NCBI GenBank assembly: GCA_052140285.1
Contig: JBKQUF010000006.1
Location: 1,133-65,132, forward strand
From: Limisphaerales bacterium
GTDB taxonomy: Bacteria; Verrucomicrobiota; Verrucomicrobiia; Limisphaerales; UBA11358
Direction: 5' to 3'
DNA length: 64,000 nt
The translations under genes were made by a program, and so were the position numbers. How positions within the stretch are numbered: the stretch's first letter is position 1; the number at the start of each line of letters is the position of its first letter. The notes under the pieces were generated by a model. It did not search any database. It was not told the origin of the DNA and saw only the letters and a program-made list of their open reading frames with translations. Shown in pieces: positions 1,708-35,892 of the stretch.

Positions 1708-3279
1708 TTACTCCCGTTCCGTTTGGATTATTTCCTGGAGTTGTTGTTGCAAGGCGGTTTTGGCCTCCGGTTCATCCAAATTGCCGGCCAGGGCGATTTC
1801 CAGAGAGCGATGGCCGAAGTTATTGCGTACGCCAGCCAGCGCGAGCGCCAGACGGTTGCCATCAACCGCTGGAAACATGGATACCACCCCCGGCGTGCTG
1901 ATTACGTCATTCCACATACAATAAAAGATGTAATACGGTCGCGGTTCGACCATCACTTCATAAACGACGAACGGCAAGCGAAAGCCACCGGCATCAATCC
2001 ATTCGCATTTCGAAAGGGTGATCACGCTATATCCGGCATCGGGCATGCAGATATCGGGTGTGTGTCCATATTCAACAGGAGTGCCCGGATTCCATTTTAT
2101 AAAAACTGCCTGCCATTGAAGGCCTTTTTCCCGCCAACTGGCATCTCGGCTGTCATCGCATTTAAGAAGTTGCAGCGCATTTTTGTCGAGCGGCATTTCT
2201 TTTAAGGTAGGGTTGTTGGTCGGCAAAAATATCGTCCATTGCGGTGTCGTCAGCAAGTGCAGTCCGTGCTGACGATACCAGGCTTGCACTGAGATTTCCA
2301 CTACAAAGATCCAGGCCAGCAGTGACAATAGCAACGGAACCAATCGGCGCTTCGGTTGAGGAAAATCAGCGAGACTGGCTGCGGTTACATGGGGGTGAAC
2401 GATAATGTTCTTTCGCGCCAGATAAATTCCCAGACCCCAAAGCGCAAAATAACACGCGGCCAATATGGTGAGGGCCGCTGGGTCGTGCCACTCTGCAATC
2501 GTTGTGATGCCATGCCGGGCTGCTACCCATATGAGGAATGACATCCGCACTTGATTTAACAAAAACGACATCGTGAATCCGCCGAGAATCAGAATGAGCC
2601 GGCGCGGGAAATTCAACCGATATAATTCGCCGAAAAAAAGTGAGATCATCAACGTGGCCTGAAACGACCGGATGCCGCTGCATGCTTCCGCAATACCCAC
2701 TTCGCCCGTCGCCACTTCAATTACATTGCCGTGTTGGATCGCAGGAACCCCCAACCAACCGAGCAATTCCACCGTGGCTCCCGTGTCGGCACGGGTCAGA
2801 CCTTGGATCAAGGGTACCTCCGCAAATGCTGGCCAGGGAACCGCGACAAGAAAATAGATGATTGGAAACGCGAGGCGTTTCAACCATTGTTCGCCTAAGA
2901 CAAAGTAAGTCAGCACGAGCGTCAACCCCACCAGCTCTATCGCCAGCGCCCAACTGACCAATCGCCATTCGGGGTCGGCTTCTTCGATCAGACGCGTGGG
3001 CGCGTAAAGTAATGTAAAAAAAAACAGGAGGTATGATGGATAACGAAGCGTGAAAGTTTGATTGAGAACCGGGGCATTGTGAAATTTTTTCCAGACCAGA
3101 TACGCACATAAAAAGGGCACCGCCCACCCATAACCATACTGGGGATTGAGCGTCCACTCAATCCGCAGATGATTGACAAGAGCCACCCAAAGACCTCCCA
3201 AAACAATAACGAGCAATAGCATGGCTTTCGGGTTTGTGTCTTGGTAAGCCTGGTTTGCGATCAGATTAAATCTAATCAT
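1708..3279 (-). CDS. exosortase fused to a C-terminal EpsI-like domain (exosortase 1)
   Basis: 523 aa, polytopic. Catalytic-region motifs 'IAEACSGIRSFQ', 'LNQVRMS' and 'EWHDPA'. C-terminal soluble part has the EpsI-like 'HTPDICMPDAGY'. Confidence 0.9.
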   Translation of the reverse strand: MIRFNLIANQAYQDTNPKAMLLLVIVLGGLWVALVNHLRIEWTLNPQYGYGWAVPFLCAYLVWKKFHNAPVLNQTFTLRYPSYLLFFFTLLYAPTRLIEEADPEWRLVSWALAIELVGLTLVLTYFVLGEQWLKRLAFPIIYFLVAVPWPAFAEVPLIQGLTRADTGATVELLGWLGVPAIQHGNVIEVATGEVGIAEACSGIRSFQATLMISLFFGELYRLNFPRRLILILGGFTMSFLLNQVRMSFLIWVAARHGITTIAEWHDPAALTILAACYFALWGLGIYLARKNIIVHPHVTAASLADFPQPKRRLVPLLLSLLAWIFVVEISVQAWYRQHGLHLLTTPQWTIFLPTNNPTLKEMPLDKNALQLLKCDDSRDASWREKGLQWQAVFIKWNPGTPVEYGHTPDICMPDAGYSVITLSKCEWIDAGGFRLPFVVYEVMVEPRPYYIFYCMWNDVISTPGVVSMFPAVDGNRLALALAGVRNNFGHRSLEIALAGNLDEPEAKTALQQQLQEIIQTERE

Positions 3280-3470: not shown

Positions 3471-4010
3471 TTAAGGCAAATAAACCGTGCGGTAAAATCT
3501 GCGGTTGAAATGGATTGCGTTCGCGTCTGAAAAAGAGAACGGGGCGGTGTTTGTCACAAGCGAGACCCAGTTTACCATGTTGGTGGATGCCTGGATGACA
3601 TATTGGTATCCTAGCACCTTGGTGACGTAAAAAGAAAATGCGCCGCCGGAACTCGCCACCGATCCCAAGAATCCTGCCGCGGTGGGAACCACAAAGGATG
3701 CTTCGTTGGAAAAACTGCTTTCCCCACCGGAGGCGTCGAGAGCCTTGGCGGCGAAAAAATAAGTCGTGCCATCGGCCAGGCCGGAAATCGTCGCGTTCGT
3801 GACATCCCCGGCGGAGTACACGTTGGTGTAAACGCCGCTCGCTGTGCCGTAATAAATATTATATCCCGTCACATCGGCATTGGTGCTGGGGTTCCACGTC
3901 AGTGTTACGTTTTGAGACGCGTTGGCTGGCAAACAAACGGAGACAAACAAGCCGCTGGACCAAAGGGCAATCAACAATGCGCGTTTAAAACTCATTAGGG
4001 CTTTCTGCAT
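3471..4010 (-). CDS. secreted fibronectin type III protein with a C-terminal 'RFYR' beta-domain
   Basis: Signal peptide from the internal ATG at 4010 (MQKALMSFKRALLIALWSSGLFVSVCLPANA). FN3 signature 'NVTLTWNPSTNADVTGYNIYYG...TTYFFAAKA'. C-terminus '...YQYVIQASTNMVNWVSL...NRRFYRTVYLP'. The ORF track start at 4052 is probably too long. Confidence 0.7.
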   Translation of the reverse strand: MQKALMSFKRALLIALWSSGLFVSVCLPANASQNVTLTWNPSTNADVTGYNIYYGTASGVYTNVYSAGDVTNATISGLADGTTYFFAAKALDASGGESSFSNEASFVVPTAAGFLGSVASSGGAFSFYVTKVLGYQYVIQASTNMVNWVSLVTNTAPFSFSDANAIHFNRRFYRTVYLP

Positions 4011-4421
4011 TCGATACGTCTCCCCCAGTATGCATAACGAATGCCAATACAACGGCTTGTGTGGAAAAAGCTACTTAATGGCGGCGATCCGGCTGGAAGC
4101 GAACTTTCTCCAAATGAATTCGCGCTGAATCCAAGGGCGTTCGACATGAGCTGCAAGACATTCAATTTTTCCCGTAGCAAACCGTCCACGTAATAACGGC
4201 TTCATAAATTTATCGCCCGTCTTTTGTTCAAAACTCCCAAGACACAGTGTCTTAAAATGAGGCAACAAAAAAAATCCGCTTTGAGTCAGAGGACGACAAA
4301 AGAAATACTAAAGGGCGAAGTTGAAAATTAAATCCGCCGGCTGCCAGGCTTTGGCGGGGAATTGAATGCCCCCACATTGGTCTTGTGGTCGCAGTAATGG
4401 CGACTCCCCCCGGTAGTATCT

Positions 4422-11689: not shown

Positions 11690-13369
11690 TCAGAACCTCA
11701 GCGTCAGATCCACCTGGTAAATGTCAAAGCTGTTAATGGGATTGATTTGGGGAATGTCCCCCGTGTCACTCCCGCCGGTTCCCAGCAGATTGTTGATACG
11801 GCTGGCGTGGCCGTAACGGAAGGTGGCGATGAGGTTGCCGGTCAAACCATAGGCGGCGGCCACGTAAATGCCCTGCAGGTTTTCCGCTCCCTCGAAGAAG
11901 TCCACGTCCAGGAGGTTGGGGTCCAGCGAGTATTGTTCAATGTGCTGCCAATAGGTTCTGACTTCCCAGGCGTGCCTCTGCGAAGTCGTGGCATTGACCA
12001 GCCCTAAAGCGTCGCGGCTGCCGATGGCAAAGCCGATTTGATAGGCTTTGACATCCGACGTTTGCGCCGGAAACGAATGCGGAATGCCAATGGTGCTGCT
12101 GGGCGGCAATCGAGTCGCCAAAACAGTTTGATACGCTGTCGCGGCATCCCGTGCGCGCGCTGCGCCATCCAGATTGTAGGATGCGTCGCCAAAGACCCGC
12201 GCGTCGAAGCGACTGATTTTGAAATTGAATTCAAAGGGAACTTCCACCACAAACAGATGATCCAAGCCGACTTGATTGAAGGGATAACCGATACTGCCCG
12301 CCCCGGCGATGCCGTTATAGAGTCCGGGAACGTATCCGCTGCTACCCGAGGCGTAGCCGTTGGCGGAGCCGCCGGCGTAATAATACGCGCCTTCACCGAC
12401 ATAGGGATCGCCATAATAAGGGGCATAAGCCAACGCATTTCCGGAGCTGGACTGGAGTCCGATATACTGGTATAATGTGGCTGCAGCCTTCGCTGACATG
12501 TTGGTGTTGATGTGGTAGTTAAACCCTCCTTGCCATGTGAGCATGAAGATATTGTCCTCCTTCTGGCCGCCTCCAGCTTCTAATACACCTGAAGTTCCTG
12601 GAATGTCCAAGCCTGCGGAAGCCTCACTGGGATTCATGTCCGCGTAAAGAAATTGTCCGAATGTGGCAAACAGGTCCGCCTGTCCGACCGTATGTTTGAA
12701 ATTTTCCGCAAAGCCTTCCGGGCTGATGTTGCCGCTCCAAACCATGGGCGTGGTGTAGAGTGGATTGGGCATCTTGCCCACGGTTAAATCCAGCCAGTCC
12801 CCCCAACGCCAGCCAAAATACAGCTGGCCAATGGTCATGGTCGCCTCGGATTTGCCAAACGGCCCATAATACGGCGATTCACTCGCGGAGGAGCCAAACG
12901 TGACAGAAGGCGAACGCGGATTGTTGCCGGTCTCAAGCCGGAGACCGTAATAAAAGTTGTCGTACAAGTCGCCCCGCACGCCGAACCGCACCGCGTAGCG
13001 ATAACGCTGGAGATCAATCCGGTTGCCGGCGGGGTCTTCTTCCGAACGGTCCTCGTAGCGCAGACGCGCGTCCCCATACAGCTGCATTTTTTTGAACCCA
13101 TTGCTCATTGCCCATCTGGATGGCGGCATCGCCGGCATTTGCATTTGATTGGAGCGCATCGTGGCGGCTTCGGCCTCCACCTGCTCGGCCTCCTGTTGCG
13201 TCACGAAACCTTTTTGCACGAACAAATCCAGCAACGGGTCGGCGGAATTGGATGCTGCTGGAGCATTGGTCGGATCCTGGCCCCAAGCCCGCATTCCCAT
13301 GGCCAGTGCCGCAATCAGGAAAATCTTCGCCGCTTGAAATGTCAGGCGCCGGGCCTTCGTGAATGTCAT
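11690..13369 (-). CDS. putative outer-membrane porin
   Basis: Signal peptide from the ATG at 13369 (MTFTKARRLTFQAAKIFLIAALAMGMRAWG). N-terminal helical 'LLDLFVQKGFVTQQEAEQVEAE', then beta-rich sequence ending '...VDLTLRF'. An alternative start at 13414 is possible. Confidence 0.6.
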   Translation of the reverse strand: MTFTKARRLTFQAAKIFLIAALAMGMRAWGQDPTNAPAASNSADPLLDLFVQKGFVTQQEAEQVEAEAATMRSNQMQMPAMPPSRWAMSNGFKKMQLYGDARLRYEDRSEEDPAGNRIDLQRYRYAVRFGVRGDLYDNFYYGLRLETGNNPRSPSVTFGSSASESPYYGPFGKSEATMTIGQLYFGWRWGDWLDLTVGKMPNPLYTTPMVWSGNISPEGFAENFKHTVGQADLFATFGQFLYADMNPSEASAGLDIPGTSGVLEAGGGQKEDNIFMLTWQGGFNYHINTNMSAKAAATLYQYIGLQSSSGNALAYAPYYGDPYVGEGAYYYAGGSANGYASGSSGYVPGLYNGIAGAGSIGYPFNQVGLDHLFVVEVPFEFNFKISRFDARVFGDASYNLDGAARARDAATAYQTVLATRLPPSSTIGIPHSFPAQTSDVKAYQIGFAIGSRDALGLVNATTSQRHAWEVRTYWQHIEQYSLDPNLLDVDFFEGAENLQGIYVAAAYGLTGNLIATFRYGHASRINNLLGTGGSDTGDIPQINPINSFDIYQVDLTLRF

Positions 13370-13412
13370 CGGGCGCAAATGCTGGCCATTGAATGCGACG
13401 GGTTTATGTCGC

Positions 13413-13434
13413 ATCGGTTACAAATCGGTTACAA
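13413..13434 (-). promoter_or_regulatory. perfect 11-bp tandem direct repeat (ATCGGTTACAA x2) upstream of the porin gene
   Basis: Read directly. On the minus strand it reads TTGTAACCGAT x2, and the second TGTAAC is followed by N16 then CGTC. Confidence 0.3.
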
Positions 13435-14350: not shown

Positions 14351-15535
14351 TCACCACTGCAACGCGCGATAAAACCGCTGTGGGGCCGTGGCGGGGTCTG
14401 TCAATTGCAGGTAGCCGCCCGTGCCCGCCTGCAGTGGCAGGGAGAGCCAGAGGCTGTCGGTGAGGGAATTCTTGTATTCCAATTGGTAGGTTCTTCCGTT
14501 GCGCGTGGGCAGGGTTGCGCTGAACCCATTCGTTCCCAACGCCGGGTTGGTGAGCGCCGCCCGGATCGCCGGCGGAGCGGAGCCAACCAGCGCCAGGCTG
14601 TTCACGTCTCCGGCGGCGATCTGCTCCACATTGGTCAGATTCACCGGCACATTCGTGTCACCTTCGGTGTCCAGTCCCCAAGCCACCACGGTCCCGTTGC
14701 TTTTTAGCGCCAGGCTGTGCCAGGCGCCGGCCGCCACCGCCACCACGTTGGTGAGACCGGCGGGGACATTGGTCTGGCCGTAATTATTCAGCCCCCAGGC
14801 GAACACGGTTCCGTTGGCCTGCAATGCCAGGTTGTGCCAGCCCCCCGCCGCAATCGCCACCACGTTGCTCAAACCGGTGGGGATGTTCGTCTCGCCGTAA
14901 CCCTCGTTTTCACCCCATGCAAACAACGTGCCGTCCGACTTCAACACCAGATTATGGTAGCCGCCGGCCGCGATGGCCACCACGTTGGACAAGCCCTCCG
15001 GCACGGTCCCTTCGTAATCCGGCGAATTGTCTTCCCCGCCCCAGGCGGCTAGTGTGCCGTCGGTTTTCAGTGCCAGGCTATGGTAAAACCCGCACGCCAC
15101 CGCTACCGCATTGGCCAAATTGTCCGGCACGTCCGTCGCGCCCCAGGTATCGTCTCCCGTCGCCGCCACCGTGCCGTTCGTCATCAGCCCCAGGCTGTGC
15201 AGGTCCCCGCAGGCCACCGCCAGATAATTGGCCGCCGGCAGATCAAGCTGCCCCAGCGTGTCATCGCCCCAGCCTTCCACCGTGCCATCGGCCTTCAAGG
15301 CCAGGCTGTGACGCCAGCCGCCCGCCACCTCCGTGGCGTTCGTCAAATCCGCCGGCACGATGGATTGGCCCCAGTCATTGATTGAACTGGTGTCCACAAA
15401 CGTTCCCGCCCCCCACGCCACCACCCGCGTCTGGCCCCGGCCGGGCTGAACGAAGGCAAAGAGGCACAGGCATGGGAGCATTGCTCTCAAAAACAATCCA
15501 GCGGTAAACCCGGCTATGCGCTCTGTGTTTTTCAT
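14351..15535 (-). CDS. secreted RCC1-repeat beta-propeller protein with a C-terminal 'RFYR' beta-domain
   Basis: Seven or so repeats of 'VVAIAAGGxHxLALKxDGTxxAWG'. Signal peptide from the ATG at 15535 (MKNTERIAGFTAGLFLRAMLPCLCLFAFV). Ends '...TYQLEYKNSLTDSLWLSL...PQRFYRALQW'. The first 88 codons of the ORF track entry lie in REP repeats and are rejected. Confidence 0.8.
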   Translation of the reverse strand: MKNTERIAGFTAGLFLRAMLPCLCLFAFVQPGRGQTRVVAWGAGTFVDTSSINDWGQSIVPADLTNATEVAGGWRHSLALKADGTVEGWGDDTLGQLDLPAANYLAVACGDLHSLGLMTNGTVAATGDDTWGATDVPDNLANAVAVACGFYHSLALKTDGTLAAWGGEDNSPDYEGTVPEGLSNVVAIAAGGYHNLVLKSDGTLFAWGENEGYGETNIPTGLSNVVAIAAGGWHNLALQANGTVFAWGLNNYGQTNVPAGLTNVVAVAAGAWHSLALKSNGTVVAWGLDTEGDTNVPVNLTNVEQIAAGDVNSLALVGSAPPAIRAALTNPALGTNGFSATLPTRNGRTYQLEYKNSLTDSLWLSLPLQAGTGGYLQLTDPATAPQRFYRALQW

Positions 15536-15602
15536 GATGGCCCGGGAATTATACTGGCCGCCATTTCGTAAAGTCAAAAATTTTAAGTTTAATGTCCGAA
15601 CT

Positions 15603-15805
15603 CGCTTTGCGTCCTGGAGTGCGGTGGCTGGCGGGGAACAGGGCTGACACCGCTTTCGCTTCAGTAACCGGCAGCCGGTGCGAAAGCGGCGTGTGCCCCC
15701 ACCCCGCACCCGCCGCACTCCAAGACGACAAGCGAATTTGCCAGCGAACCCAAAACCGCTTTGCGTCGTGGAGTGCGGTGGCCGTGACACCGCTTTCAAA
15801 TCGCG
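15603..15805. repeat. REP-like element family A (three units, nested inverted repeats)
   Basis: Units 'cgctttgcgtcctggagtgcggtggc' (15603), an inverted copy near 15711, and 'ccgctttgcgtcgtggagtgcggtggccgtgacaccgctttcaaa' (15757). The same family recurs at 18578..18731. Confidence 0.75.
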
Positions 15806-16202
15806 GATGATTTCCCAATGTCCATGTAAAAAAATCTCTTGTGCGTTTCATGCCTGCCCGCCGTAGCCTCGGCGGAGGCGGGTGTTTGGTGGTTGAATTT
15901 TTTGCAAACCAGGAGTTTTCTTGAACCGGCTAAAGTTACCTTCTTGCGACAAAATCCCCCCAAACATCCAAAAACTGCAAACAAAAATCACAACTCGTTG
16001 CATTTAAATGAATTATACAGAATTGTTCCAGGTCTTAAAACAGGCCTTTCAAGTCCTCTGACGGGTAGTTCTTGCGCCGGCTTGGTGGTATAACTTTGAC
16101 CGTGGAACCTGATTGGGGTTCAAACAAACCAAAACACAAACCAAAAAGGAATAATTAAGCCGACAAAAGGAGTAATTAAACCAAAACAAACACGATACAA
16201 TT

Positions 16203-17012
16203 ATGATTATACAAAAATTAACCAAAGCGGGGGCGCTGGTCGCCGGCGCATTGCTGGCCTGCCAGGCGGCGCACGCGGCAGGCATCACGGCCAACGACCT
16301 GTATATGGGTTTCCAAAACAGCGGAGCGAGTTCCGATTACATTGTCAACCTCGGCGCGGCCTCCAGCATTCTTGGACAGGATACCGTCGTCAATTTGAGC
16401 GGCGACTTCACCGAGAGCGACATTACCGCCATCTTGGGCGGTGCTGGTACTTCCTATGCCGGCACAATCGGCGCTAACAACGCCGGTGGCGTCCCGTCGG
16501 TTGCCAACCCGGCGGATGCATATGGCACGGTGTTGCGCACCAGCAACCTTGGAAATAACGCTGTGTCCGGTTCCGTTCAGCCCACTGCAATCAGCAGTGG
16601 TTCGGATATCACTGCCTACAATGACCTCGGAACCCTGAACGCGCCAGCTACTGCGGGTGGCCAACTGGATTCCGGCAAAACGTTTACAGCCGATGTTCCG
16701 TCCAGCGGCGCAGCTGCTGGCACTTACAATAGCGCCACCGGGTTGATCCCGAACTCGGCGGTCACCACTTCCAGCGCCCTTATCGAAGACCTTTGGTACA
16801 CTGCTGATCCCAGCACCGGACGCACCGACACCAGCAAACCGTGGGTCTATGAGGGCTATTTCACCATTGACTTGACTGGTTCCAGTCCTGACGTGACCTT
16901 CACCAGCGACTTGGTGACCGCCGTTCCCGAGCCGACCACTTACGGCCTCATGGCTGGCGCTGGCCTGCTGCTCCTGAGCCTTCGCCGCCAACTCGGTGTC
17001 AAGCTGGCTTAA
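16203..17012 (+). CDS. PEP-CTERM sorting-domain secreted protein (paralog P1)
   Basis: Signal peptide, passenger of about 230 aa, then 'VPEPTTYGLMAGAGLLLLSLRRQ'. The passenger is homologous to 20149..21102. Confidence 0.85.
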   Translation: MIIQKLTKAGALVAGALLACQAAHAAGITANDLYMGFQNSGASSDYIVNLGAASSILGQDTVVNLSGDFTESDITAILGGAGTSYAGTIGANNAGGVPSVANPADAYGTVLRTSNLGNNAVSGSVQPTAISSGSDITAYNDLGTLNAPATAGGQLDSGKTFTADVPSSGAAAGTYNSATGLIPNSAVTTSSALIEDLWYTADPSTGRTDTSKPWVYEGYFTIDLTGSSPDVTFTSDLVTAVPEPTTYGLMAGAGLLLLSLRRQLGVKLA

Positions 17013-17076
17013 TCACAAACTTCCCGAAAAAATAAACAACGATAAACAACGACAACGACAAAAAAATTAAACAATT

Positions 17077-18483
17077 ATGAAAATTAACAGTATATTAACC
17101 ACGGCGCTTCTGGCGCTGGGAGTTGTCTCCCAGGCTGGCGCGACCAATCCCTCCGCTCCGACGATTTATTATACCGGATCCACGGCGTTCCGTTCAACGA
17201 TTTACACCTCGTTGGCCGATAACACCGGCGATAGCGGCGCCGTGTTCGCTGCCGGCACCCTCCAGTTTGGCACCTGGGGCAACAGTGCCCCTGCCAGCGC
17301 CAACTACATGGTGTTTTACGGCGAATTAAAAGGCACCTCCACCTACGTCTATATCAACGCGGCGTGGAGCGGTTCGGAAGCGGGCATCGCCTCGGCCTGC
17401 AACACCAACTTGGTGAACACCCGCCGCGACAATTCGACGGTAACCCTGGCCGGCTCGCCGGAGACGTGGGTGGATGACACCACCTGCACCCTGGCGGCGG
17501 CGCCCGCAGGCAGCGTCAATGCCGGGAGTCCGGGAGCCAATGGTTCTCCCGCCAACGGCGCGCAACTCGAAGCGGCCCCCCACGGCTCGGATTTGGCCCA
17601 GGCAGACACGTCCCAGGCAGTTTCCTGGACGCCCAATGCGGGGAGTGGTCCCACGGATTTGAAGGACTACGGCTCGCAAGGCGTGGTCACCTTCGTGATC
17701 TCGAAGAATGTGAACCCCGCTCCCACCACGGATTGGAGCTCAGTCACCAACATCAGCCTTCCCCAGCTTGTTACATTGTTAAATCTGGGTTCGGTGCAGT
17801 CTTATTTCCTCTCCGGCGATCCGAATGGCGCTGAGTATGTCTATGCGGTTGGCCGCAACCTCGGTTCGGGCACGCGCATGAACGTTCTGTCCGACAGCAC
17901 TTACGGTGGCCAGAAAACAGTGGACCAATTCTCCATTGGTTACGGCGTTGACAACCGCGACCCGGGACAAACCCCTGCCACGCTCATCCTTCAGAATGAA
18001 GGGGACAACGGCTATGAAAGCGGCGGCGGCGTGGCCAAGGCGCTGGCCGACACAGGCGCCAGCGACACCGCTGGCAGTTGCCAGCAGGCGGACCCGATTC
18101 ACGGCGGCACCGGTTGGTTTGCCATCGGCTATCTCAGCCCGTCCGACGCCAACAGCACCGGCAATAACGGCGGTCAACCTACTCCGCTGCATCCCGGCCC
18201 CGCCAACTGGATCACCGTGAGCGGATACCCCTCGAACAACAACAACATCGAGAACGGCCAATGGTGGTACTGGGGCCATGAACATCTGTATGGCCGCTAC
18301 AACATCGCCGGCACCCTCGCGGACCAGGTGGGAGGCGTCCTCTTCACCGCCGTGTCGGATGAAATTGTAAATCTGGGCCTCGGCGTTACCCCGGCCGGAA
18401 ATGACGCTGCCATTCCCTACAGCCTGATGTTTGCCAAAAAGGGCAGCGACACGGCTTTCCCGATTCCTGGCGCTGGCGAATAG
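17077..18483 (+). CDS. secreted protein, possibly periplasmic-binding-protein (PstS/PBP_like_2)-like fold
   Basis: 468 aa with a signal peptide. 'IYYTGSTAFRS' and 'GRNLGSGTR' are reminiscent of phosphate-binding PBP motifs. The assignment is weak. Confidence 0.35.
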   Translation: MKINSILTTALLALGVVSQAGATNPSAPTIYYTGSTAFRSTIYTSLADNTGDSGAVFAAGTLQFGTWGNSAPASANYMVFYGELKGTSTYVYINAAWSGSEAGIASACNTNLVNTRRDNSTVTLAGSPETWVDDTTCTLAAAPAGSVNAGSPGANGSPANGAQLEAAPHGSDLAQADTSQAVSWTPNAGSGPTDLKDYGSQGVVTFVISKNVNPAPTTDWSSVTNISLPQLVTLLNLGSVQSYFLSGDPNGAEYVYAVGRNLGSGTRMNVLSDSTYGGQKTVDQFSIGYGVDNRDPGQTPATLILQNEGDNGYESGGGVAKALADTGASDTAGSCQQADPIHGGTGWFAIGYLSPSDANSTGNNGGQPTPLHPGPANWITVSGYPSNNNNIENGQWWYWGHEHLYGRYNIAGTLADQVGGVLFTAVSDEIVNLGLGVTPAGNDAAIPYSLMFAKKGSDTAFPIPGAGE

Positions 18484-18526
18484 TCTTGGCATTAAAATTG
18501 AGTTAAACGCAGTTTAACAACGCAAC

Positions 18527-18558
18527 CGGCGCGGAGAATTCTCCGCGCTGGTTTTTTT
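18527..18558 (+). terminator. Rho-independent terminator
   Basis: Perfect palindrome gcgcggagaattctccgcgc followed by a T7 run, 44 nt after the 18483 stop. Confidence 0.8.
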
Positions 18559-18577
18559 ATTGGAGTGCTGACTAATT

Positions 18578-18731
18578 CGCTTTGCGTCTTGGAGTGCGGC
18601 GGCAATCCCGCAAAGCGGGAGCGACGCCGCTTTGGGGAGGGCGTTGGCGTTTGGCCAGGCGTTGGATTTTTAAGAATCACCTTCAATTTGAAAGCGGTGT
18701 CACGGCCACCGCAGTCCAAGACGCAAAGCGG
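18578..18731. repeat. REP-like element family A (two inverted units)
   Basis: 'cgctttgcgtcttggagtgcggcggc' at 18578 and the reverse complement of the 15757 unit at 18688..18731. Confidence 0.75.
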
Positions 18732-18823
18732 TTTTGTCATCAAAATGTCACATTCCCCGGCCCCATCCGTGATTGTATTTTCCCGAAATCCAAGTTAGTC
18801 TGGGCATTGCGATTGAGGCGAAT

Positions 18824-19696
18824 ATGAAGACGACGTTATCAATTTCCATTGGATTAAACCTGGCTTTGGCGGGCGGGTTGATTTTCTTCGTCGCAAACCA
18901 CCGCAACCAACCAACCATTTCCGCGCCGGTCGTGTCTGAAAGCACACCGCCACCGCCCGCGGCGCCGGCCCCGCTGGCTCCAGTGCCGCCGCAAACCGAG
19001 CCGCCGCCGTTTCATTGGAGCCAGCTTCTGCCGGCAAATAATTACCGGGCTTACCTTGCCAATCTGCGTGCCAGCGGCTGTCCGGAAACGACCATTGATG
19101 ACATTGTCCGGGGCGACACCGACCGGGCGTTTGCCTACGAGCGCGCCCAATTGGGGCTGAGTGAATCCGGCAACGGCCCGTGGTCGGAGTGGCGGGAGAA
19201 CCAACTGATTGCCAGCCTGCTGGGGGAACCGTCGGCGAATCAAACGTCCGCCCCGGCCCAAATCGCGGAAAACCCGACGCCGGAAAATAATGGAGAAGGC
19301 GCTGTTGAATCTGCTTCGGCCCAAAGCATGGCGGCAACACCCTTGTTCCTGCAATATACGAACTGGGATGCTTTGGGCTTCAATGCCGGCGAACAGGCCG
19401 CCATTGCGCGGGTGCGGCAGCAGTATCAGAACCAAGTCGCCAGCCAGAACCAAAGTTCCAGCGGCGCGGCAAACCAGAATTCCGATGGCGCGGCAGGCCA
19501 GAATTCAACCCCCGCCGGCCCGAACATCGGCGCGACGGTCGCGGCGAATCAATCGCAAACCGCGTTGCAGAATGCCAACGACCAATTGCGTGGTCTGCTG
19601 GGTGGCCAGGATTACGAGGCTTATGTACAACAGGAGTATTATTTGTGGTTCCAGCGGCAGTCGGGGTCAATAAATCCCCGCGCGTTTTCGCCGTAA
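18824..19696 (+). CDS. hypothetical single-pass membrane protein (Pro-rich linker, Gln/Asn-rich region)
   Basis: Start MKTTLSISIGLNLALAGGLIFFV at 18824. No catalytic motif recognised. Confidence 0.55.
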   Translation: MKTTLSISIGLNLALAGGLIFFVANHRNQPTISAPVVSESTPPPPAAPAPLAPVPPQTEPPPFHWSQLLPANNYRAYLANLRASGCPETTIDDIVRGDTDRAFAYERAQLGLSESGNGPWSEWRENQLIASLLGEPSANQTSAPAQIAENPTPENNGEGAVESASAQSMAATPLFLQYTNWDALGFNAGEQAAIARVRQQYQNQVASQNQSSSGAANQNSDGAAGQNSTPAGPNIGATVAANQSQTALQNANDQLRGLLGGQDYEAYVQQEYYLWFQRQSGSINPRAFSP

Positions 19697-19730
19697 TGAG
19701 CCGGTCCCGTCGTAAAACGCGAAGCGGTTT

Positions 19731-19962
19731 GTCGCGGAGCGACAGCGGAGATTAGCCCGGCACAGTGTGCCGGGCTAAACGGTCCAAGAATCCCGCGCGT
19801 CCTGAAAGGACGCTGGAAACCGCCTGGTTTTATAGGCGATTCCCCCGTCCCTGCGGGACGGATGCAAACTGTTTTGCCCTTCCAGACACCCCGTGTCTGG
19901 CTAATGTCCAGTGTCGCTCTGCGACAAAACGAATGCGCGTTGGACATTTTACCCATTATCAA
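19731..19962. repeat. composite multi-hairpin REP/MITE element, family B, copy 1
   Basis: Ordered hairpins gtcgcGGAgcgac, gcccggcacAGTGtgccgggc, gcgtccTGAAaggacgc, gtcccTGCgggac, ccagacacCCCGtgtctgg, gtcgcTCTgcgac. Collinear with copies at 21135, 21889 and 23934. Confidence 0.8.
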
Positions 19963-20148
19963 TTTCAAAGTCTTCAAACAGGGGTTTAATGTCCTTAAAC
20001 TTGTTATAAAAGCGGGCCGGCTCGCGATAAAGTACCTTGTAAAATGGTGATGGCCATAATACGCTTTGGCGCGCATACCAATTTACGCTTGGAGAGCCAT
20101 TCGCTCAACGTCCGGCGGAGCAACAAAAACACAAACATTAAAAAAGCA

Positions 20149-21102
20149 ATGAAGAATTTAATAGCAGCGGCCATCATTTTTGGCGGGGCAATTCTGGCCT
20201 CCTCACCAGTGTTCGGAGCGGTGAATATCGCGCCAAATGTCCTGTATCTGGGGTTTCAAAACAGCGCGGCGGCCGACGATTACATTATCAACCTCGGCGC
20301 GGCAACCAATTTGGTCGGCGGCTCCACAGTGATAACATTGAGCAGCGACCTCACGAAGAGCGACATTACCGCCGTACTGGGCGGTGCTGGAACTTCCTAT
20401 GCCGGCGTGATCGGCGCTAATAACGCCGGTGGCGTCCCGTCGGTTGCCAACCCGGCGGATGCTTATGGCACGGAGTTGCGCAACAGCAACATTGGAAATC
20501 CGGCTGTGGCCGGTTCCTCTGCCCCCACTGCTATTAGCAGTGGTTCGGATATCGTTGCCTACAATGCCCTCGGGAACTTGAACGCGCCAGCTACTGTGGG
20601 GACTGGCGTTCTGGATTCCGGCAAAACGTGGACAGCGGATGTTCCGTCCAGCGGCACACCTTCTGGTACTTATAATGGCTCAACCGGGTTGAACCCGAAC
20701 TCGGCGGTCACCACTTCCAGCGTCCTTTACGACGACCTTTGGTACACTGCCGACCCCGATAGCGGACGCACCGATACCAGCAAACCGTGGACATACCAGG
20801 GCTATTTCACGATTGACTTAACCGGCAGCAGCCCGAAGCTGACCTTTACGCCTACGAACGCCCCGGCAACGACGGTGCCGAAGCCGGTTATTGTGTTGGT
20901 CGCCAAGCTGGCCGGCACGGTCACGTTGATTTCGACCAATGCGTCGCCCACGCATACGTATCAATTGCAATACACCGCCAGTTTGTCGCCCATCGCCTGG
21001 ACGAGCGTTGGCAGCGCGGTCACTGCCGGCGGCACGATAGTAACCAATACCGACACCACCGCGACGCCCGCGCAACGGTTCTATCAGATTCAGGCGCAAT
21101 AA
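20149..21102 (+). CDS. secreted paralog P2 of the 16203 passenger, with a C-terminal 'RFYQ' beta-domain instead of PEP-CTERM
   Basis: Start MKNLIAAAIIFGG at 20149 with a signal peptide. The passenger aligns with P1 along its length. The tail is 'VPKPVIVLVAKLAG...THTYQLQYTASLSPIAWTSV...AQRFYQIQAQ'. Confidence 0.8.
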   Translation: MKNLIAAAIIFGGAILASSPVFGAVNIAPNVLYLGFQNSAAADDYIINLGAATNLVGGSTVITLSSDLTKSDITAVLGGAGTSYAGVIGANNAGGVPSVANPADAYGTELRNSNIGNPAVAGSSAPTAISSGSDIVAYNALGNLNAPATVGTGVLDSGKTWTADVPSSGTPSGTYNGSTGLNPNSAVTTSSVLYDDLWYTADPDSGRTDTSKPWTYQGYFTIDLTGSSPKLTFTPTNAPATTVPKPVIVLVAKLAGTVTLISTNASPTHTYQLQYTASLSPIAWTSVGSAVTAGGTIVTNTDTTATPAQRFYQIQAQ

Positions 21103-21134
21103 AATTCCCTGCTTGGGGATGGTTTATGGGGTTT

Positions 21135-21374
21135 GTAATGGGTAAAGGGGAAATTGTCGCGAAGCGACAGATGGGAATTAGCCCGGCACACCGTGCCGGG
21201 AAAAAGGTCCCAGAATCCCGCGCGTCCTGAAAGGACGCCCGGAACGGCCCGATTTTACGGGCCTTTTCCACCGCCCCTGCCGGGACGGATGCAAAATGAT
21301 TTGCCTTACCAGACGCTTCGTGTCTGGCTAATCTCCAGCGTCGCTCCGCGACAACAACCTCCCTTACCCATTAC
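21135..21374. repeat. family B element copy 2, with terminal inverted repeats
   Basis: Left end GTAATGGGTAAAGGGG (21135). Right end CCCTTACCCATTAC (21361..21374) is its near-perfect reverse complement. Internal hairpins match copy 1. Confidence 0.8.
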
Positions 21375-21436
21375 CAACGTGGAGGAACCAAATTTTACCG
21401 TTTTCTTTGCGATATTCATCTTGCAAACTTAAGCGC

Positions 21437-21883
21437 ATGCCGTCCACGCACTTGAGCCTGCATTTCCACCTTGTCTTCAGCACGAAGGACCGGCATCCAT
21501 TTATCGCCGACACATGGCGTCCGCGTTTGCACGAATATTTTGGAGGTCTGATTCGCGCGGCGGAGGGGATTCTGGAAGCGATTGGGGGAACGGCGGATCA
21601 TGTTCATTTGCTCGTTGGTTTGCGGGCGACCCACGCGCTGGCGACATTCGTGCAGGACATCAAGCAAACTTCGTCGCGCTGGATTCACGAGAGCATCAAT
21701 GTAAAAAATTTCGCATGGCAACCGGGCTACAGCGCCTTTACGGTAAGCGCGTCCAATTGCGGCGCAGTAGAGGAATATATTGCGAACCAGGCGGAGCATC
21801 ACCGGTTAAAATCATTTCAGGAGGAATATGTGGCGTTTCTCCAGAAACATGGCGTGGAATACAATGAAAATTTTTTGTGGTGA
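21437..21883 (+). CDS. REP-associated tyrosine transposase (IS200/IS605 TnpA Y1 family, RAYT)
   Basis: 'HLSLHFHLVFSTKDR', HUH motif 'ADHVHLLV', and catalytic Tyr context 'EEYIANQAEHH'. Likely start MPSTHL at 21437. Confidence 0.85.
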   Translation: MPSTHLSLHFHLVFSTKDRHPFIADTWRPRLHEYFGGLIRAAEGILEAIGGTADHVHLLVGLRATHALATFVQDIKQTSSRWIHESINVKNFAWQPGYSAFTVSASNCGAVEEYIANQAEHHRLKSFQEEYVAFLQKHGVEYNENFLW

Positions 21884-21888
21884 TTTCC

Positions 21889-21970
21889 GGCGTCCTTTCA
21901 GGACGAGTCCGTGGATGCGCGTTCACCAGACACTTCGTGTCTGGCTAATGTCCAACGTCGCTCCGCGACA
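21889..21970. repeat. family B element, partial copy 3
   Basis: Contains the hairpins cgtccTTTCAggacg, ccagacacTTCGtgtctgg and gtcgcTCCgcgac only. Confidence 0.7.
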
Positions 21971-22003
21971 CTTATGGATCCGACGCGGGCGTCAGCCACT
22001 GGT

Positions 22004-23899
22004 ATGAATCATCCGCGTTACCAAGTGTGGCTGCTTGCCATATTGCTGTTGCTGGCGACCATTTCCGTTTTCTGGCCGGCGACGAGCCACGACTTTGTCA
22101 ATTATGATGACCCGTATTTCGTCACTTCGAATGTTCAGGTCCAGGGCGGACTGACTTGGGACGGCATAAAATGGGCATTCACCCACGCAGTGGTGGGGAA
22201 TTGGCATCCAATGACCACGTTGTCCCACATGTTGGACTGCCAAATATACGGGTTGAATCCGTGGGGCCATCACCTGACGAACGTGCTGCTGCATGGGGCC
22301 AACACGGTTCTGGTATTTTTGCTGCTTCGCCGCCTGACCGGTGCGGTTTGGCGGAGCTTGATGGTGGCGACATTGTTTGGGCTGCACCCGTTGCACGTGG
22401 AATCGGTGGCCTGGGTGGCGGAACGCAAGGACGTGTTGAGCGCCTTTTTCTTTCTGTTGGCCCTTCTGGCATACGGTCGCTATGTGGAACATGCGAGCGC
22501 GGGCAGCGGGGATGGAGCAGGGAGCAGGAAAGCGGACCCTCACCTCACCCTGACCACATGGGCTTGGTTTTTCCCCACGACCCTCACCCGGCGCCCTGGC
22601 GCCACCCTCTCCCGCTCCTGCGGGCGAGGGATATTCTCCCCTCCCATCGGATGGGAGCGGAGAGGGAACAGCAAGCGGACGCTTGTTTGGTATGTCGTGG
22701 CGCTGTTGCTCTTTGCCTTGGGCCTCATGGCCAAGCCGATGCTGGTGACGTTGCCGTTCGTGATGTTGCTGCTGGATTACTGGCCGCTCAAACGGTTTTC
22801 TGATTTCCGGTTTCGAATTTCGGATTTTAAAAACCTGCTGCGCGAGAAAATTCCGTTCTTTCTCCTGGCGGCGGTTATGGGCGTGGTGACATATCTCGCG
22901 CAACAGCACGGCGGCATGATGGATTCGCTTGGAAACGTGTCGCCGGGCACCCGGATCGAAAACGCGCTGATTTCCTACTGCCGGTATTTGGGGAAGTTGT
23001 TTTGGCCGGCGCGGCTGGCCGTTTTTTATCCGTATCCCGATCATTGGCCGCTGAATGAGGCCCTGCTGGCGGGCGCGTTGTTGGCGGGCATTTCCGCGTT
23101 TGTATTCACGCTGCGGACGCGGCAACCTTATTTGCTGACGGGGTGGTTGTGGTACTGCGGGACGCTGATACCGGTCATTGGATTAGTGCAAGTGGGCGGA
23201 CAGGCGATGGCGGACCGCTACACGTACCTTCCGTCATTGGGGTTGTTCATCATGGTTGTTTGGGGGGCGGCCGAACTGGCCAAACCTTGGAGGTATCATG
23301 CGATGGCATTGGGAGTGGCGGGCGGCGCGGTGGTCCTCGTATGCGTTGGCTTGACGCGGCGGCAACTGGTTTACTGGCAAGACAGCGAAACGCTGTACCG
23401 GCACACGTTGGCGGTAACAACGGACAATTTCCTTGCGCATCATAACCTCGGTATCTTTCTCTATAAAAAGGGGCGCACGGGCGAGGCGATCACCCAATAC
23501 CAGGAAGCGCTCCGCCTAAAACCTGATGACGCCATCGCCCACTACGACCTCGGAACCGCCCTCGGCAAGGAGGGCCAAACGGATGAGGCGATTATTCAAT
23601 TTCAGGAAGCCATCCAACTCAATCCCGACAACGCCGAGGCGCGCATCAATCTGGGGACCGCCCTGGCCGTGAAGGGCCGGATGGATGAGGCGATTGCCCA
23701 GTTTCAGGAAGCCCTCCGCCGGCAACCTGACAACGCCGAGGGCCATTACGACCTGGGCACCATTCTGGGCATGGAAGGCCGGATGGACGAAGCGATTGCC
23801 CAATTTCAAGAAGCCCTCCGGATCCAACCCGATTACCCCGCGGCCCGCCAGAATCTCGCGCACGCCCTGGAAATTAAAAATACTCCCGCCGACCATTGA
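22004..23899 (+). CDS. TMTC-like GT-C membrane glycosyltransferase (DUF1736/PMT_2-type) with C-terminal TPR array, paralog 1
   Basis: Start MNHPRYQVWLL at 22004. 'VNYDDPYFV' and 'HPLHVESVAWVAERKDV' in a polytopic N-domain. C-terminal TPRs of the type 'AIxQYQEALRLKPDxAxAHYxLG'. The upstream part of the ORF track entry lies in a REP element. Confidence 0.8.
   Translation: MNHPRYQVWLLAILLLLATISVFWPATSHDFVNYDDPYFVTSNVQVQGGLTWDGIKWAFTHAVVGNWHPMTTLSHMLDCQIYGLNPWGHHLTNVLLHGANTVLVFLLLRRLTGAVWRSLMVATLFGLHPLHVESVAWVAERKDVLSAFFFLLALLAYGRYVEHASAGSGDGAGSRKADPHLTLTTWAWFFPTTLTRRPGATLSRSCGRGIFSPPIGWERRGNSKRTLVWYVVALLLFALGLMAKPMLVTLPFVMLLLDYWPLKRFSDFRFRISDFKNLLREKIPFFLLAAVMGVVTYLAQQHGGMMDSLGNVSPGTRIENALISYCRYLGKLFWPARLAVFYPYPDHWPLNEALLAGALLAGISAFVFTLRTRQPYLLTGWLWYCGTLIPVIGLVQVGGQAMADRYTYLPSLGLFIMVVWGAAELAKPWRYHAMALGVAGGAVVLVCVGLTRRQLVYWQDSETLYRHTLAVTTDNFLAHHNLGIFLYKKGRTGEAITQYQEALRLKPDDAIAHYDLGTALGKEGQTDEAIIQFQEAIQLNPDNAEARINLGTALAVKGRMDEAIAQFQEALRRQPDNAEGHYDLGTILGMEGRMDEAIAQFQEALRIQPDYPAARQNLAHALEIKNTPADH
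22536..22670. repeat. palindromic repeat element inserted in frame inside the TMTC-like gene
   Basis: 'ccctctcccgctcc'...'ggagcggagaggg' arms and an inner 'tctcccctcccatcggatgggag' hairpin. This region has no counterpart in the paralog 30953..33250. Confidence 0.6.
22802..22829. repeat. heptanucleotide tandem repeat (GATTTCC GGTTTCG AATTTCG GATTTTA) within a CDS
   Basis: Read directly; encodes 'DFRFRISDF'. Confidence 0.8.
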
Positions 23900-23933: not shown

Positions 23934-24180
23934 GGGTAAAGGGGAAGTTGTCGCGGAGCGACAGCGGAGATTAGCCCGGCACAGTGTGCCGGGTAAAACA
24001 GCCCAGGAATCCTGCGCGTCCTGAAAGGACGCGGGAAACCGCCCGGTTTTACAGGCAATTCCCCCGTCCCTGCCGGGACGGATGCAAACTGATTTGCCCT
24101 TCCAGACACTCCGTGTCTGGCTAATGTCCAGTGTCGCTTCGCGACAAGCCAAATGCGTGTTGGATGTTTTACCCATTATA
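23934..24180. repeat. family B element copy 4
   Basis: Collinear with copy 1 and near-identical over most hairpins. Ends in 'gggtaaagggg' and 'ttttacccattata'. Confidence 0.8.
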
Positions 24181-24244
24181 AACGTAGAGAACCGGCAACA
24201 AAGTGATCCGATACATGATAGTGTCCACGTTTCGCCCTCTGACC

Positions 24245-25315: not shown

Positions 25316-25485
25316 GTAGCGGCAGACATCCCTGTTTGCCGTGGAGCCGGGGCTTCCAGCCCGGCCGATAAAACGCTCCGCAGTATGAAAGCGTGATTAA
25401 ATCAAAAAACAATCCGCAGTGCGGGAACTGGTTCCGGGCGGCAGGGATGCACGCCCTCTACGTCAGGCAGGATGCCTGACGCTAC
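25316..25485. repeat. REP-like element family C
   Basis: Hairpin units 'ctacgtcaggcaggatgcctgacgctac', 'gccggggcttccagcccggc' and 'gtagcggcagacatccctgtttgccg'. Same family as 43097..43242. Confidence 0.7.
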
Positions 25486-28400
25486 GGGGTGGCGGCGGAC
25501 AGGATGACCGTTACCCGACCAACCCGGCGGACTTCGGCTTTCTTTTTCTTTTTCTTGTCGTCATCGCCGCCATTGCCGTTGTCGGCCACCTGTTGCTGGC
25601 CGGCGGCGCTGGTCTGGCCGGCGGCGCTGGTGCTGGTGCTGGTGGCCTGGGCGGAAGTTCCCAAGGTGGATTGGGCCGCGCCGCCGTTGACAGATACTTT
25701 CTGGCCAAGCAACGTGGCGCCGGTGATGCCGCTGGCATTGACGCCCTGCCCGCCGATGATGGTGATGCCGCCGCCACTGCTTTGGGCCGATACGTTGGCC
25801 GTGCCGACGGCCAGGACTGTAAGAGAGCTGACCGTCTGGCCGGTCACATTGGCGTTCTGCGAGGAAACCAGCAAACCACTGATGTTGCCCGTGTAGTTGG
25901 CATTAACCGTTCCCCCGATCACACCGGCGCTGCCCAGGACAATGTTGCCTGCATAAACCGGCGTGGCCTTTGAACTCCAATCGGGCGCCACAGGGGCGCC
26001 GGTCTCCAAGCTGACATAAGTGTATTGGCCGTCATAATCAACGAAGCCGGCTCCCGCGGGGGTGCCGGCATCCAGGGTGACATACGGGCCGGGGAGGAGA
26101 GTTCCGCCGAGCGACTCCTGCAAGATGCCGCCCAGGCTGGCATAAATGCTTCCCTCGGGCGTGGTCACCGTGATGTTGCCCGGTTGCGTCGCGGCCCCGG
26201 GCAACTCCGGGGACAGGGTGTCCGCCACAATGCCGTTGGCATAGACGTTTTCATAACCTGGCACGTCGGCAACCGGGAGAAAGACATTGACGGGAACCAC
26301 CGCCGTGCCGCCGCTGCCCGCGTTCACATCGCCAGTCAGCGAGGTGATGTTGATATTGCCGCCGCTGAAAGTGGCAATGCGGGAAGTGTCAATGTTGATG
26401 GTGCCCAGAACCGTCACGTTCACCATGCCGCCGCCGGTGGTGTAAATACCCACGCCGAGGTTGTTGTCATACATGACGGCAGCCTCAAAATCCGCCAGAT
26501 CCGGGGAACCCAAATCCATGGAGACGCCGACGCCGCTGTTGTTCAGGGGGTCCTGGGCGCTGGCCGGAAGCTCGCCAGTGCAGGTGACATTCACATCGCC
26601 GCCGCCGAGGGCCGCAATCGTGGAGGTGGGCATCTCCAGGGTGTTGGCGGTGACGTTGATCGTCGCGCCGGGCGCGGACGCAATGTAAGGCGTCAGATAA
26701 GCATAGTTCACACCCTGGTTCCCATTGCCCACGGAAAGGATTCCATAGGAATTGCCGAGGTTGATCGAACTGGCCGAAACATCAAAATAGCCCGTGCCAC
26801 CCACAATCAGGCCGCCACTGCCACCCAAGCTGGGCTTGTCCTGGCTGACGTTTTCAAGGGTGTTAATGTCGGTAAGATCGGGGTCGGTGGAAGTGGCCGT
26901 GCTCGGCGGCATCCACGCGACTTTGTTTATCACAAAGTGACCGCTGGAATCAAGAAGGGGATAACCATTGGCTCCATAGACCGGCAGATAGAGATAGGCA
27001 GATGTCAGGGCGGCAAAAAGGTCCGATGCCGGGCCGGCCGAGGTGAGCACCTGCGTGACGGGATTGTAATCCAAGCCTGAATAAAACACCGCGGAACCTG
27101 AGATCCCGAACGTTAAGTTCCTGTACGCATAGGTAAAGTATCCGGACAAAGTTGAGAGCGGGAGGCCGGTATAAGACTGGTCATTGATGCCCGATATGGC
27201 TGGATCGGTCAAAGCATCTTCAAAAATGCTGTACCAATAATCAGCCGTGCCGGATGGCAGATAAGTCTCCCCGGAAGGCAGGGTTTCCGACAACTCAGCC
27301 AGGTCCGGCAAGGCCGTATCCAAAGTGACCGAGGCGAACGAATTGGCATAATAAATCTGGCCGCCAACGGTGATGGAAGTGACATCGCCCGGATTCAAAT
27401 TCTCCCCGTAAAAAGTGCAGCCGATCATGTCGCCGCCCACGACGATTTGGGCCAGCTTGCTGGTTTGCAGGCTGACATTTTCCATGTCGCCGGAGATGTT
27501 GAGGACCACGGGATTCTCATTGCCCAACTCCGGCGGGACACTGGCGTGGTCGTCTGGACCAAATGCCGAAGCGCTGGAGCTGCCGCTGGAAGGCCATTGC
27601 GTCAGGCCGCTGTCGGACATCAGCAAGTAGGTGGATAAACCATCAGCGTTGTCACTGCTCAACCCGCCTCCATCCGTGGTGGTGATTTCCAGATTTTGGT
27701 CGGGGGAAGGAAACAGGATGATGTCATTGTTCAACAAAGTGCCGCCGTTGGCAGTAACCGCGTTTGGGCTTTGCAACGTGACTCCGCCATGACCGGCGTT
27801 GATGATCAGTGTCGGCGGTAGAATCAGGGGAACGGCGTCATCGGGCCGCGGGATGTCAAAACCCGTCAAATTAACGCTGTAGCCCGCGGTCAGGGTGACG
27901 GAATCATTCGGGGCGTAGTCAAAAAGATGATTTCCGGCCGACGGCTTCTCGTTGCGGCTGCCAGCGCCGGTTTCCGTGTTGTTGAACACGCCGTTAGGAT
28001 TTCGCGCTTCCTGCAAATAAATATCGCCCACGCCGCTCTGGACCGTTTGCGCGGCCGGGTCCCAGCCCGCATTCAAATCCCAACTGCCGGCGACCAGGCT
28101 CAACGCCACGTTTTGGGAGGAAGTGCCGATGTCCTGTCCGGCGTTGATGACACCCGTGCCATTGACCTCCACAAAACTTCCATAAACGTTCCCACCGGCA
28201 TTGATCGTCACGTTTCCCGGTTCGGAACCAAAAGCACCGCTCCCCGGATCGCCCGGCGCCGCCGTTGTGGTGGGAAAACTGATCACGTTGCCGCCCGCAT
28301 TGATGGTCACGTTGCCGCCGTCGGCCGTGCTGATGCCGCCGAGATTCTGATCGGGACTAAAATAGGGCGCGGATGCAGACCAATCAAACCCGGCCGTGCC

Positions 28401-30860: not shown

Positions 30861-30952
30861 CGTTTCAGCGTTCAAGGATACCACATCGAGACTTTTAGCG
30901 GTTGTTTTTTCAGGTGACGTTTAGGTTAAAAATATGCTGGAGGACTTATGAA

Positions 30953-35767: not shown

Positions 35768-35871
35768 CAGGGAAAAATTCCTTCGCGCCCAGCCAACGGC
35801 GGACAGTCGGAAGGCGGGTGACCAAAAATTCACGTTTCTCAAGACTGGGCAACTTGTATTACAGGTTTTTG

Positions 35872-35892
35872 TCGGAATTGTGACAATCCCGA
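35872..35892. promoter_or_regulatory. imperfect palindrome TCGGAATTG-tga-CAATCCCGA in the tpsB/araC divergent region
   Basis: 9-bp arms with one mismatch, about 105 nt upstream of the tpsB start. Confidence 0.2.

Follow-up and report, generated by a model that had tools for sequence, protein, structure and literature searches.

How does one extracellular passenger come to carry two quite different C-terminal endings in two neighbouring genes, and what does the less familiar of these endings do? The question is raised by a 64,000-nt stretch of the genome of a soil verrucomicrobium (the window, to which all coordinates refer throughout), in which two genes, here called P1 and P2, encode the same passenger. 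P1 terminates in a PEP-CTERM sorting signal and P2 in a small domain with an RFYR-like motif near its end. Soils are rich in Verrucomicrobiia, whose genomes encode large extracellular proteins in great number, and to our knowledge little is known about how these proteins are displayed. The best explanation as a whole is, in our judgement, that P1 and P2 are an old pair maintained by gene conversion and that the RFYR-type tail provides a deployment of the passenger independent of exosortase, a reading to which we assign a probability of roughly 55%. The elements on which the argument rests are the following.

16203..17012, plus strand: P1, 269 aa; open reading frame (ORF) with matches to PF07589 and TIGR02595
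16920..17012, plus strand: PEP-CTERM sorting signal of P1; Pfam and NCBIfam matches at residues 240-262
20149..21102, plus strand: P2, 317 aa; ORF, supported by orthologue N-termini
20881..21099, plus strand: RFYR-type C-terminal domain of P2, aa 245-317, predicted FN3-like sandwich; AlphaFold2 (AF2) models
20410..20685, plus strand: putative most recent conversion tract, acceptor, in P2, limits approximate; strain comparison
16467..16739, plus strand: matching putative donor tract in P1; offset 3943, rising to 3946 past a 3-nt indel

P1 and P2 lie on the same strand as direct copies 3.9 kb apart, and a preliminary description of this DNA held that their passengers align throughout. This is borne out by BLASTP, in which 172 of 260 residues (66%) are identical (E 1e-112) over a span reaching from the signal peptide to a common junction, and the mean column identity of the nucleotide alignment is 82%. 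P1 is laid out as a signal peptide (about aa 1-26, assigned by eye from the sequence), a passenger (about aa 27-236) and a PEP-CTERM tail (aa 240-269) made up of VPEP, a hydrophobic helix and RRQ. P2 has a signal peptide, a passenger of about 210 aa as in P1 and the C-terminal RFYR-type β-sandwich; an in-frame ATG at 20044 would give a protein of 352 aa, and the N-termini of orthologues fit the start at 20149. The passenger fold is without known relative. P2 matched no Pfam or NCBIfam family at E <= 1, the named NCBIfam choice-of-anchor models (A-X) gave no match to the passenger, the only matches at E <= 1 being PEP-CTERM-related and on the P1 tail, and nothing was found when the sequences of solved structures were searched with profiles of the passenger and of the tail and with X, the protein encoded between P1 and P2.

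At the junction the two proteins part, and both endings are much as they had first been described. The C-terminus of P1 is a canonical PEP-CTERM that exceeds the curated cut-offs of both models (PF07589 24.4 vs 20.7, TIGR02595 20.3 vs 16; residues 240-262/269), and the exosortase expected in the genome of a PEP-CTERM protein is present as an EpsH-family gene at 1708..3279. P2 reads 'TVPKPVIVLVAKLAG' at the same point and continues into a 72-aa domain closing with AQRFYQIQAQ.

This alternation extends far beyond the window. A search with P2 yielded 169 homologues, derived from Verrucomicrobia-type metagenome bins wherever the label is reliable, and among the 120 of these that were listed 113 carry the RFYR-type tail and 7 PEP-CTERM. 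A passenger-only profile returned 111 proteins, 91 of them new: 28 with PEP-CTERM, 50 whose tail the profile recognised and 13 left unclassed, the latter appearing by eye to be mostly weak-scoring RFYR-like tails, or fragments. Nearly all of the 211 passenger homologues examined have one ending or the other; none has both, and no other anchor type or, fragments aside, tail-less form was found among them. As a description, the comparison with a choice-of-anchor passenger made at the outset is consequently apt, alternative endings being found at the same junction across these homologues. As in the choice-of-anchor families (NCBIfam, Haft), one passenger is combined with mutually exclusive endings, of which one is PEP-CTERM. 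Unlike in those families, the passenger of P1 and P2 matches no named model, the second ending is no recognised sorting signal, and the two proteins are neighbouring paralogues under gene conversion and not homologues in different organisms. A catalogued case of the choice-of-anchor concept is found 7 kb from P1:

8366..9034, minus strand: PEP-CTERM protein with a choice-of-anchor E passenger; NCBIfam 31 bits vs 23.8

Among the unclassed proteins is a more distant passenger subfamily of 330-370 aa (P0416-P0474), with the motif GDL-x-AGFR…YELV-x-N-x-GN. It holds the position of P2 in two related loci (L031, 14263-15306; L036, 10128-11174) and has its own RFYR-type variant, …NRFYRVGAH.

Repeated gene conversion keeps the two passengers alike, and the non-homologous tails stay fixed. 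Passenger identity within a genome is 0.71-0.82 in most genomes, and it exceeds the identity to the best same-tail orthologue in 8 of 18 genomes, the ones whose closest relative in the sample shows no more than 66% identity; genomes very close to one another (91-94%) cluster by tail. Informative sites of three quartets, taken from the central part of the passenger, favour grouping by genome over grouping by tail at 34:1, 42:0 and 18:1, and indels specific to a genome are common to both of its paralogues. The segment that is 93% alike between P1 and P2 is among the least conserved between genomes (0.30-0.41 identity). The likeness is more uneven than chance would produce. Synonymous differences at identical codons amount to 12/104 in aa 73-200 vs 23/62 in the flanks (Fisher p = 1.5e-4), and the perfect run of identity between P1 and P2 at 16479..16519 is 41 nt long, the chance of a run of at least 41 identical bases being 0.0075. 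The nearly identical stretch to which attention was first drawn, given as 16440..16530 versus 20385..20475, is real, with 85 of 91 nt identical, and its P2 coordinates were 2 nt out of register; it pairs with 20383..20473 (offset 3943).

Over 1,377 bp, a contig from a related strain (L039) shares 96.4% identity with the window. Its 49 differences are concentrated within 20399..20698, where 35 of them fall (binomial p = 1.7e-13), and none lies beyond 20733, so that the tail is identical between the strains. At 42 differing sites alignable with P1, P2 of the window agrees with P1 of the window at 28 and P2 of L039 at 6 (p = 1e-4). The simplest reading of the aligned strains is that the latest tract, of about 275 bp at about 20410..20685 and containing the nearly identical stretch, would have been copied from P1 to P2 since the strains split, on top of older tracts. 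Alternatively, the tract may reflect an import into the L039 strain, which would leave the result of concerted evolution unchanged. Gene conversion, one of two origins initially offered for the similarity, is in this way strongly upheld by site patterns, within-genome identity and the tract itself. Purifying selection was rejected as the cause of the nearly identical stretch in view of the poor conservation of the segment between genomes, the synonymous homogenisation of the centre and the L039 tract. A public contig (L040; ENA ERZ25039528 contig_172002) of 7,289 bp is 99.97% identical to window 14838-22126, and a public metagenome has thus captured the organism of the window or a near-clone of it.

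Concerted evolution of neighbouring paralogues is familiar from tuf genes and surface-antigen families, and P1 and P2 resemble these cases in their tract mosaic, grouping by genome, synonymous homogenisation and a tract that can be dated between strains. Unlike in those cases, conversion between P1 and P2 stops at a functional boundary, and two different endings are therefore preserved on a shared, co-evolving body.

The pair is also old and belongs to a conserved surface-protein locus of the Verrucomicrobiia. Looking up contigs and scanning genomes that represent species revealed 18 species-level metagenome-assembled genomes (MAGs) of this class in which the RFYR form follows the PEP form on the same strand, about 3 kb downstream. 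The conserved order is Porin_5 (minus), often RCC1-RFYR (minus), PEP form, X, Y, RFYR form, Sel1 (minus), TpsA (minus) and TpsB (minus), and since both forms are syntenic in these genomes the arrangement with two tails predates their lineages. The neighbours concerned are represented in the window as follows.

11690..13414, minus strand: Porin_5-family outer-membrane protein, conserved divergent neighbour of the cassette; PF16930 E 1.3e-29 and synteny
14351..15535, minus strand: RCC1-repeat protein with the second tail subtype, C-terminus …PQRFYRALQW; PF13540 E 1.8e-53 and tail alignment
17077..18483, plus strand: X, secreted, 468 aa, between P1 and P2; conserved in related loci
18773..19696, plus strand: Y, about 300 aa, with a hydrophobic segment at the N-terminal end and a middle part rich in Pro/Gln; conserved in related loci
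25482-30884 and 33305-36073, minus strand: TpsA, 1,800 aa, with an NPXG haemagglutinin N-terminal domain, and a ShlB/POTRA transporter; two-partner secretion pair

X sits between the paralogues in nearly all related loci (38-66% identity), the RCC1-RFYR protein is conserved at the locus in about 13 related genomes, and Sel1 and TpsA/TpsB adjoin the cassette in nearly all related genomes. Some locus contigs (L005, L013, L016, L034 and L036) and entries (P0003, P0027, P0037 and P0079) bear the labels Acidiferrales, Limnocylindrales, Bifidobacteriaceae, Sulfopaludibacter, Dongiaceae or Saccharimonadales; the locus that they carry is clearly verrucomicrobial, and the labels probably reflect mis-binned or mislabelled MAG contigs.

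The second ending is a member of a large, uncatalogued and strongly C-terminal domain family. A profile built from three tails of the window was searched against 1.84 billion representatives, clusters at 50% identity, and 3,469 clusters were matched at E <= 1e-3. The last copy of the tail ends at most 8 aa from the C-terminus in 138 of the 149 top representatives and in 71 of 72 single-copy proteins, and in the 43 RFYR-type ORFs that 605 kb of related loci contain, the tail is terminal without exception. The preliminary description had allowed that the tail might prove not to be consistently C-terminal, which did not materialise. None of the 43 ORFs is also a PEP-CTERM protein, and a PEP-CTERM-like end was found in none of 150 representatives of the tail family. 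Two to eight tandem copies are present in 77 of the 149 tail-bearing proteins. The passengers of the family are typical extracellular modules, namely RCC1 propellers and Ig, fn3, cadherin-like, cohesin, GH9, FG-GAP and LamG modules. The family has a conserved pattern of its own (Y-x-L-Q, W, D, R-F-Y-R), and no Pfam or NCBIfam model covers it. A profile of diverse tails retrieved for the most part short fragments without a name, the few that were named being Verrucomicrobiae, and homologues with a reliable source label are all Verrucomicrobiia. In the literature nothing was found on the RFYR-type domain, whether by itself or in connection with PEP-CTERM or sorting in Verrucomicrobia, with choice-of-anchor or with the type IX secretion system (T9SS) in Verrucomicrobia, and a preprint (Haft 2023) mentions Verrucomicrobiota only as PEP-CTERM hosts.

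The tail of P2 is confidently modelled as a 72-aa FN3-like module. The AF2 model of the whole protein (predicted local distance difference test, pLDDT, 87) has strands over residues 247-316, and the model of the tail by itself (pLDDT 93.8) is a sandwich of six to seven strands; in the models VIVLVAKLAG forms strand A and RFYQIQ the last strand. The best structural matches of the tail are FN3 domains, with TM-scores of 0.72-0.74 and root-mean-square deviations of 2.3-2.6 Å, namely Ihog FN3-1 (2ic2) and the FN3-like domain of Pel3 (4u49), for which the Foldseek E-values are weak (0.25-0.31). The fold and the possibility of tandem occurrence are thus shared with the bacterial FN3 domains of PF00041. 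Unlike those, the RFYR-type tail is strongly C-terminal, has its own conserved residue pattern and is not matched by the PF00041 sequence model, the fn3 matches in tail-bearing proteins being located upstream of the tail.

The models also alter how the junction of P2 should be read. VPKP had been taken for a relic of, or a transition from, the PEP motif. It is peculiar to the lineage of the window; the RFYR-form orthologues have L-T/S-x-P at this position, with only the last Pro nearly invariant, and VPKP, not being conserved among them, is therefore not a PEP relic. Nor is it a degenerate PEP-CTERM, since no model matched at E <= 1 and the stretch that follows is a Lys-containing β-strand. 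VIVLVAKLAG, at first noted as hydrophobic, was rejected as a membrane helix, being ten residues long including Lys and modelled as strand A, and the tail, at first called a β-domain, was rejected as a membrane β-domain or outer-membrane β-barrel, having 72 residues and being modelled as an FN3-like sandwich. The idea that the tail is better conserved than the passenger was likewise abandoned: the tail in the window shares 51% identity with its counterparts in two other genomes, much as the passenger does at 47-52%.

What, then, might such a tail do? PEP-CTERM proteins are held in the inner membrane by a C-terminal helix, after which exosortase cleaves them and hands them on. Both P1 and P2 would be exported by Sec. 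P1 would be held in the inner membrane and then cleaved and passed on by the exosortase encoded 13 kb away, presumably its processing enzyme, and P2, which has no membrane segment, ends in the RFYR-type sandwich. The RFYR-type domain would give the passenger a second, exosortase-independent deployment. Its likeliest form would be non-covalent attachment to the cell envelope or the exopolysaccharide matrix by way of a C-terminal binding module. That the tail sorts or anchors its protein is plausible. Tandem copies are common in non-covalent binding modules and not in cleaved sorting signals (SLH, LysM, T9SS C-terminal domains, CTDs), and because the tail domain forms tandem copies a binding module is favoured over a cleaved secretion signal, which is less likely.

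Several observations weigh against exosortase-independent deployment of an old, converted pair. No partner or machinery was identified for the RFYR-type domain, and its structural matches are to ordinary FN3 domains only, with weak E-values >= 0.16. Internal tandem copies keep an RFYR-like motif in 129 of 150 cases, from which it follows that the motif represents the final strand of a generic sandwich fold rather than a signal recognised at the terminus. The sample of the top 150 is skewed to RCC1 proteins (25/64), an RCC1 protein having supplied one of the three seed tails. Three related loci (L018, L022 and L023) are without P1, X being directly followed by the RFYR form with no PEP form or Y, and a fourth (L030) has the PEP form, X and Y and is without P2; to have both forms is accordingly not essential. 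Finally, the donor direction of the latest tract is based on one related strain, L039, compared without its own P1.

In the main rival explanation the tail would be an FN3-like spacer, structural or adhesive, that comes last by chance and has no role in sorting or anchoring, in which case P2 would be soluble and released, and P1 anchored. The generic fold, the tandem arrays with their internally kept motif, the failure to find machinery or a partner, and the lack of matches to any Pfam or NCBIfam sorting-domain model are all in keeping with a spacer, and we regard it as a real possibility, if clearly the less probable one. Ordinary spacer domains are scattered along proteins, and against this stands the finding that nothing follows the last copy in the 138 of 149 representatives and the 43 of 43 ORFs from related loci. 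Furthermore, every passenger homologue, fragments aside, has either PEP-CTERM or the RFYR-type tail, which would be odd if the tail were dispensable.

One may also speculate that the RFYR-type sandwich is the mark of cargo for an undescribed verrucomicrobial pathway of surface attachment or export, interchangeable with the exosortase address, a proposal that we consider doubtful. A more specific proposal is that of a true C-terminal secretion or attachment signal, similar to the T9SS CTD and removed by a dedicated verrucomicrobial machinery. It is attractive in that a C-terminal β-sandwich of 70-80 aa is found on many kinds of extracellular passenger, as is the T9SS CTD (Por_Secre_tail, TIGR04183), and in that the tail and PEP-CTERM are mutually exclusive and swapped at exactly the same junction. 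The evidence to the contrary makes it improbable. No match to Por_Secre_tail, TIGR04183 or the type-B CTD was found for P2 (E <= 1), for 10 diverse tail-bearing proteins (E <= 0.01) or for 64 representatives (E <= 1e-5), and the type IX CTD is absent from the top 50 structural matches of the tail. A T9SS CTD is expected in single copy and strictly at the C-terminus; the RFYR-type tail agrees with this in being terminal in 138/149 and departs from it in being present in 2 to 8 copies in 77/149. T9SS CTDs do not form tandem internal repeats, as this tail does. The homologues found with a reliable source label are all Verrucomicrobiia, and we know of no T9SS described in this class. T9SS families were not seen within the 64-kb window, the stretch of genome covered, and the conserved locus shows no evident candidate for the machinery.

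That P1 and P2 are instead a recent, lineage-specific duplication, as had been suggested as one option, and owe their likeness to youth or purifying selection can scarcely be credited: the 75% passenger identity within the genome and the 91-nt stretch at 93% would fit, but both forms occur with the same order and intervening genes in 18 species-level genomes, close genomes group by tail, the stretch of greatest similarity ranks among the most poorly conserved when genomes are compared, homogenisation of synonymous sites is confined to the centre, and the sister strain differs precisely in the tract.

The surroundings of the pair in the window are an exosortase and exopolysaccharide region. Two further genes deserve to be listed.

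1708..3279, minus strand: exosortase, EpsH family; PF09721 E 2.8e-37, TIGR04178 signature 47.4 bits vs cut-off 23
3471..4052, minus strand: small fn3 protein with the third tail subtype, C-terminus …RRFYRTVYLP, directly adjoining the exosortase gene; PF00041 E 1.7e-9

No named Xrt subtype model reaches its cut-off on this exosortase. A PrsT-like TPR protein, a Wza-like exporter and an EpsL-like outer-membrane protein are also encoded in the window. P1 conforms to the PEP-CTERM/exosortase system (TIGR02595, PF07589) both in its full tripartite signal and in the company of exosortase, PrsT-like, EpsL-like, Wza-like and exopolysaccharide genes. Unlike in that system, P2 is without the signal, and the cassette does not adjoin the exosortase gene in related genomes.

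Downstream of P2 follow an IS200-like gene, TPR and Sel1 proteins, the TpsA/TpsB pair and a long run of polysaccharide genes. Neither X nor Y matches a family in Pfam or NCBIfam, and X has no sequence match in PDB; by eye, X contains candidate PstS-like periplasmic-binding motifs (YYTGSTAF, WSGSEAG, GSGTR). A 62-nt inverted repeat (15751-15812 / 18675-18736, 90% complementary) encloses P1 and X. A repeat of about 235 nt with internal palindromes (GTCGCGGAGCGAC) is present at 19729-19962, 21154-21389 and 23948-24182, and partially at 21925-21970, so that copies flank P2 on both sides with another 2.8 kb further on; their identity is 61-91%. Among these copies lies an IS200/Y1-transposase-like ORF (21407-21883; PF01797 E 1.6e-25) with a weak match to the REP-associated tyrosine transposase (RAYT), and the repeats and this ORF together look like a REP/RAYT-type system (REP, repetitive extragenic palindromic).

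Here, a domain family of at least 3,469 clusters at 50% identity has been defined outside Pfam and NCBIfam, which is the last domain in more than 90% of its carriers and never occurs with PEP-CTERM. Its role can be tested cleanly on the P1/P2 cassette, since the same passenger at the same locus has two endings that have long been preserved and an upstream part that has been homogenised, and the pair is a good lead on what the second ending does. Should the tail prove to be a spacer only, P1 and P2 would still be a tidy example of conversion halting at a functional boundary. If it is the cargo mark of an undescribed pathway, the pair would represent a natural experiment on interchangeable addresses for one passenger. 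If the RFYR-type domain is a module for anchoring or export, it would be a new entry among the few bacterial C-terminal sorting devices, and the surface proteomes of the phylum would become predictable.

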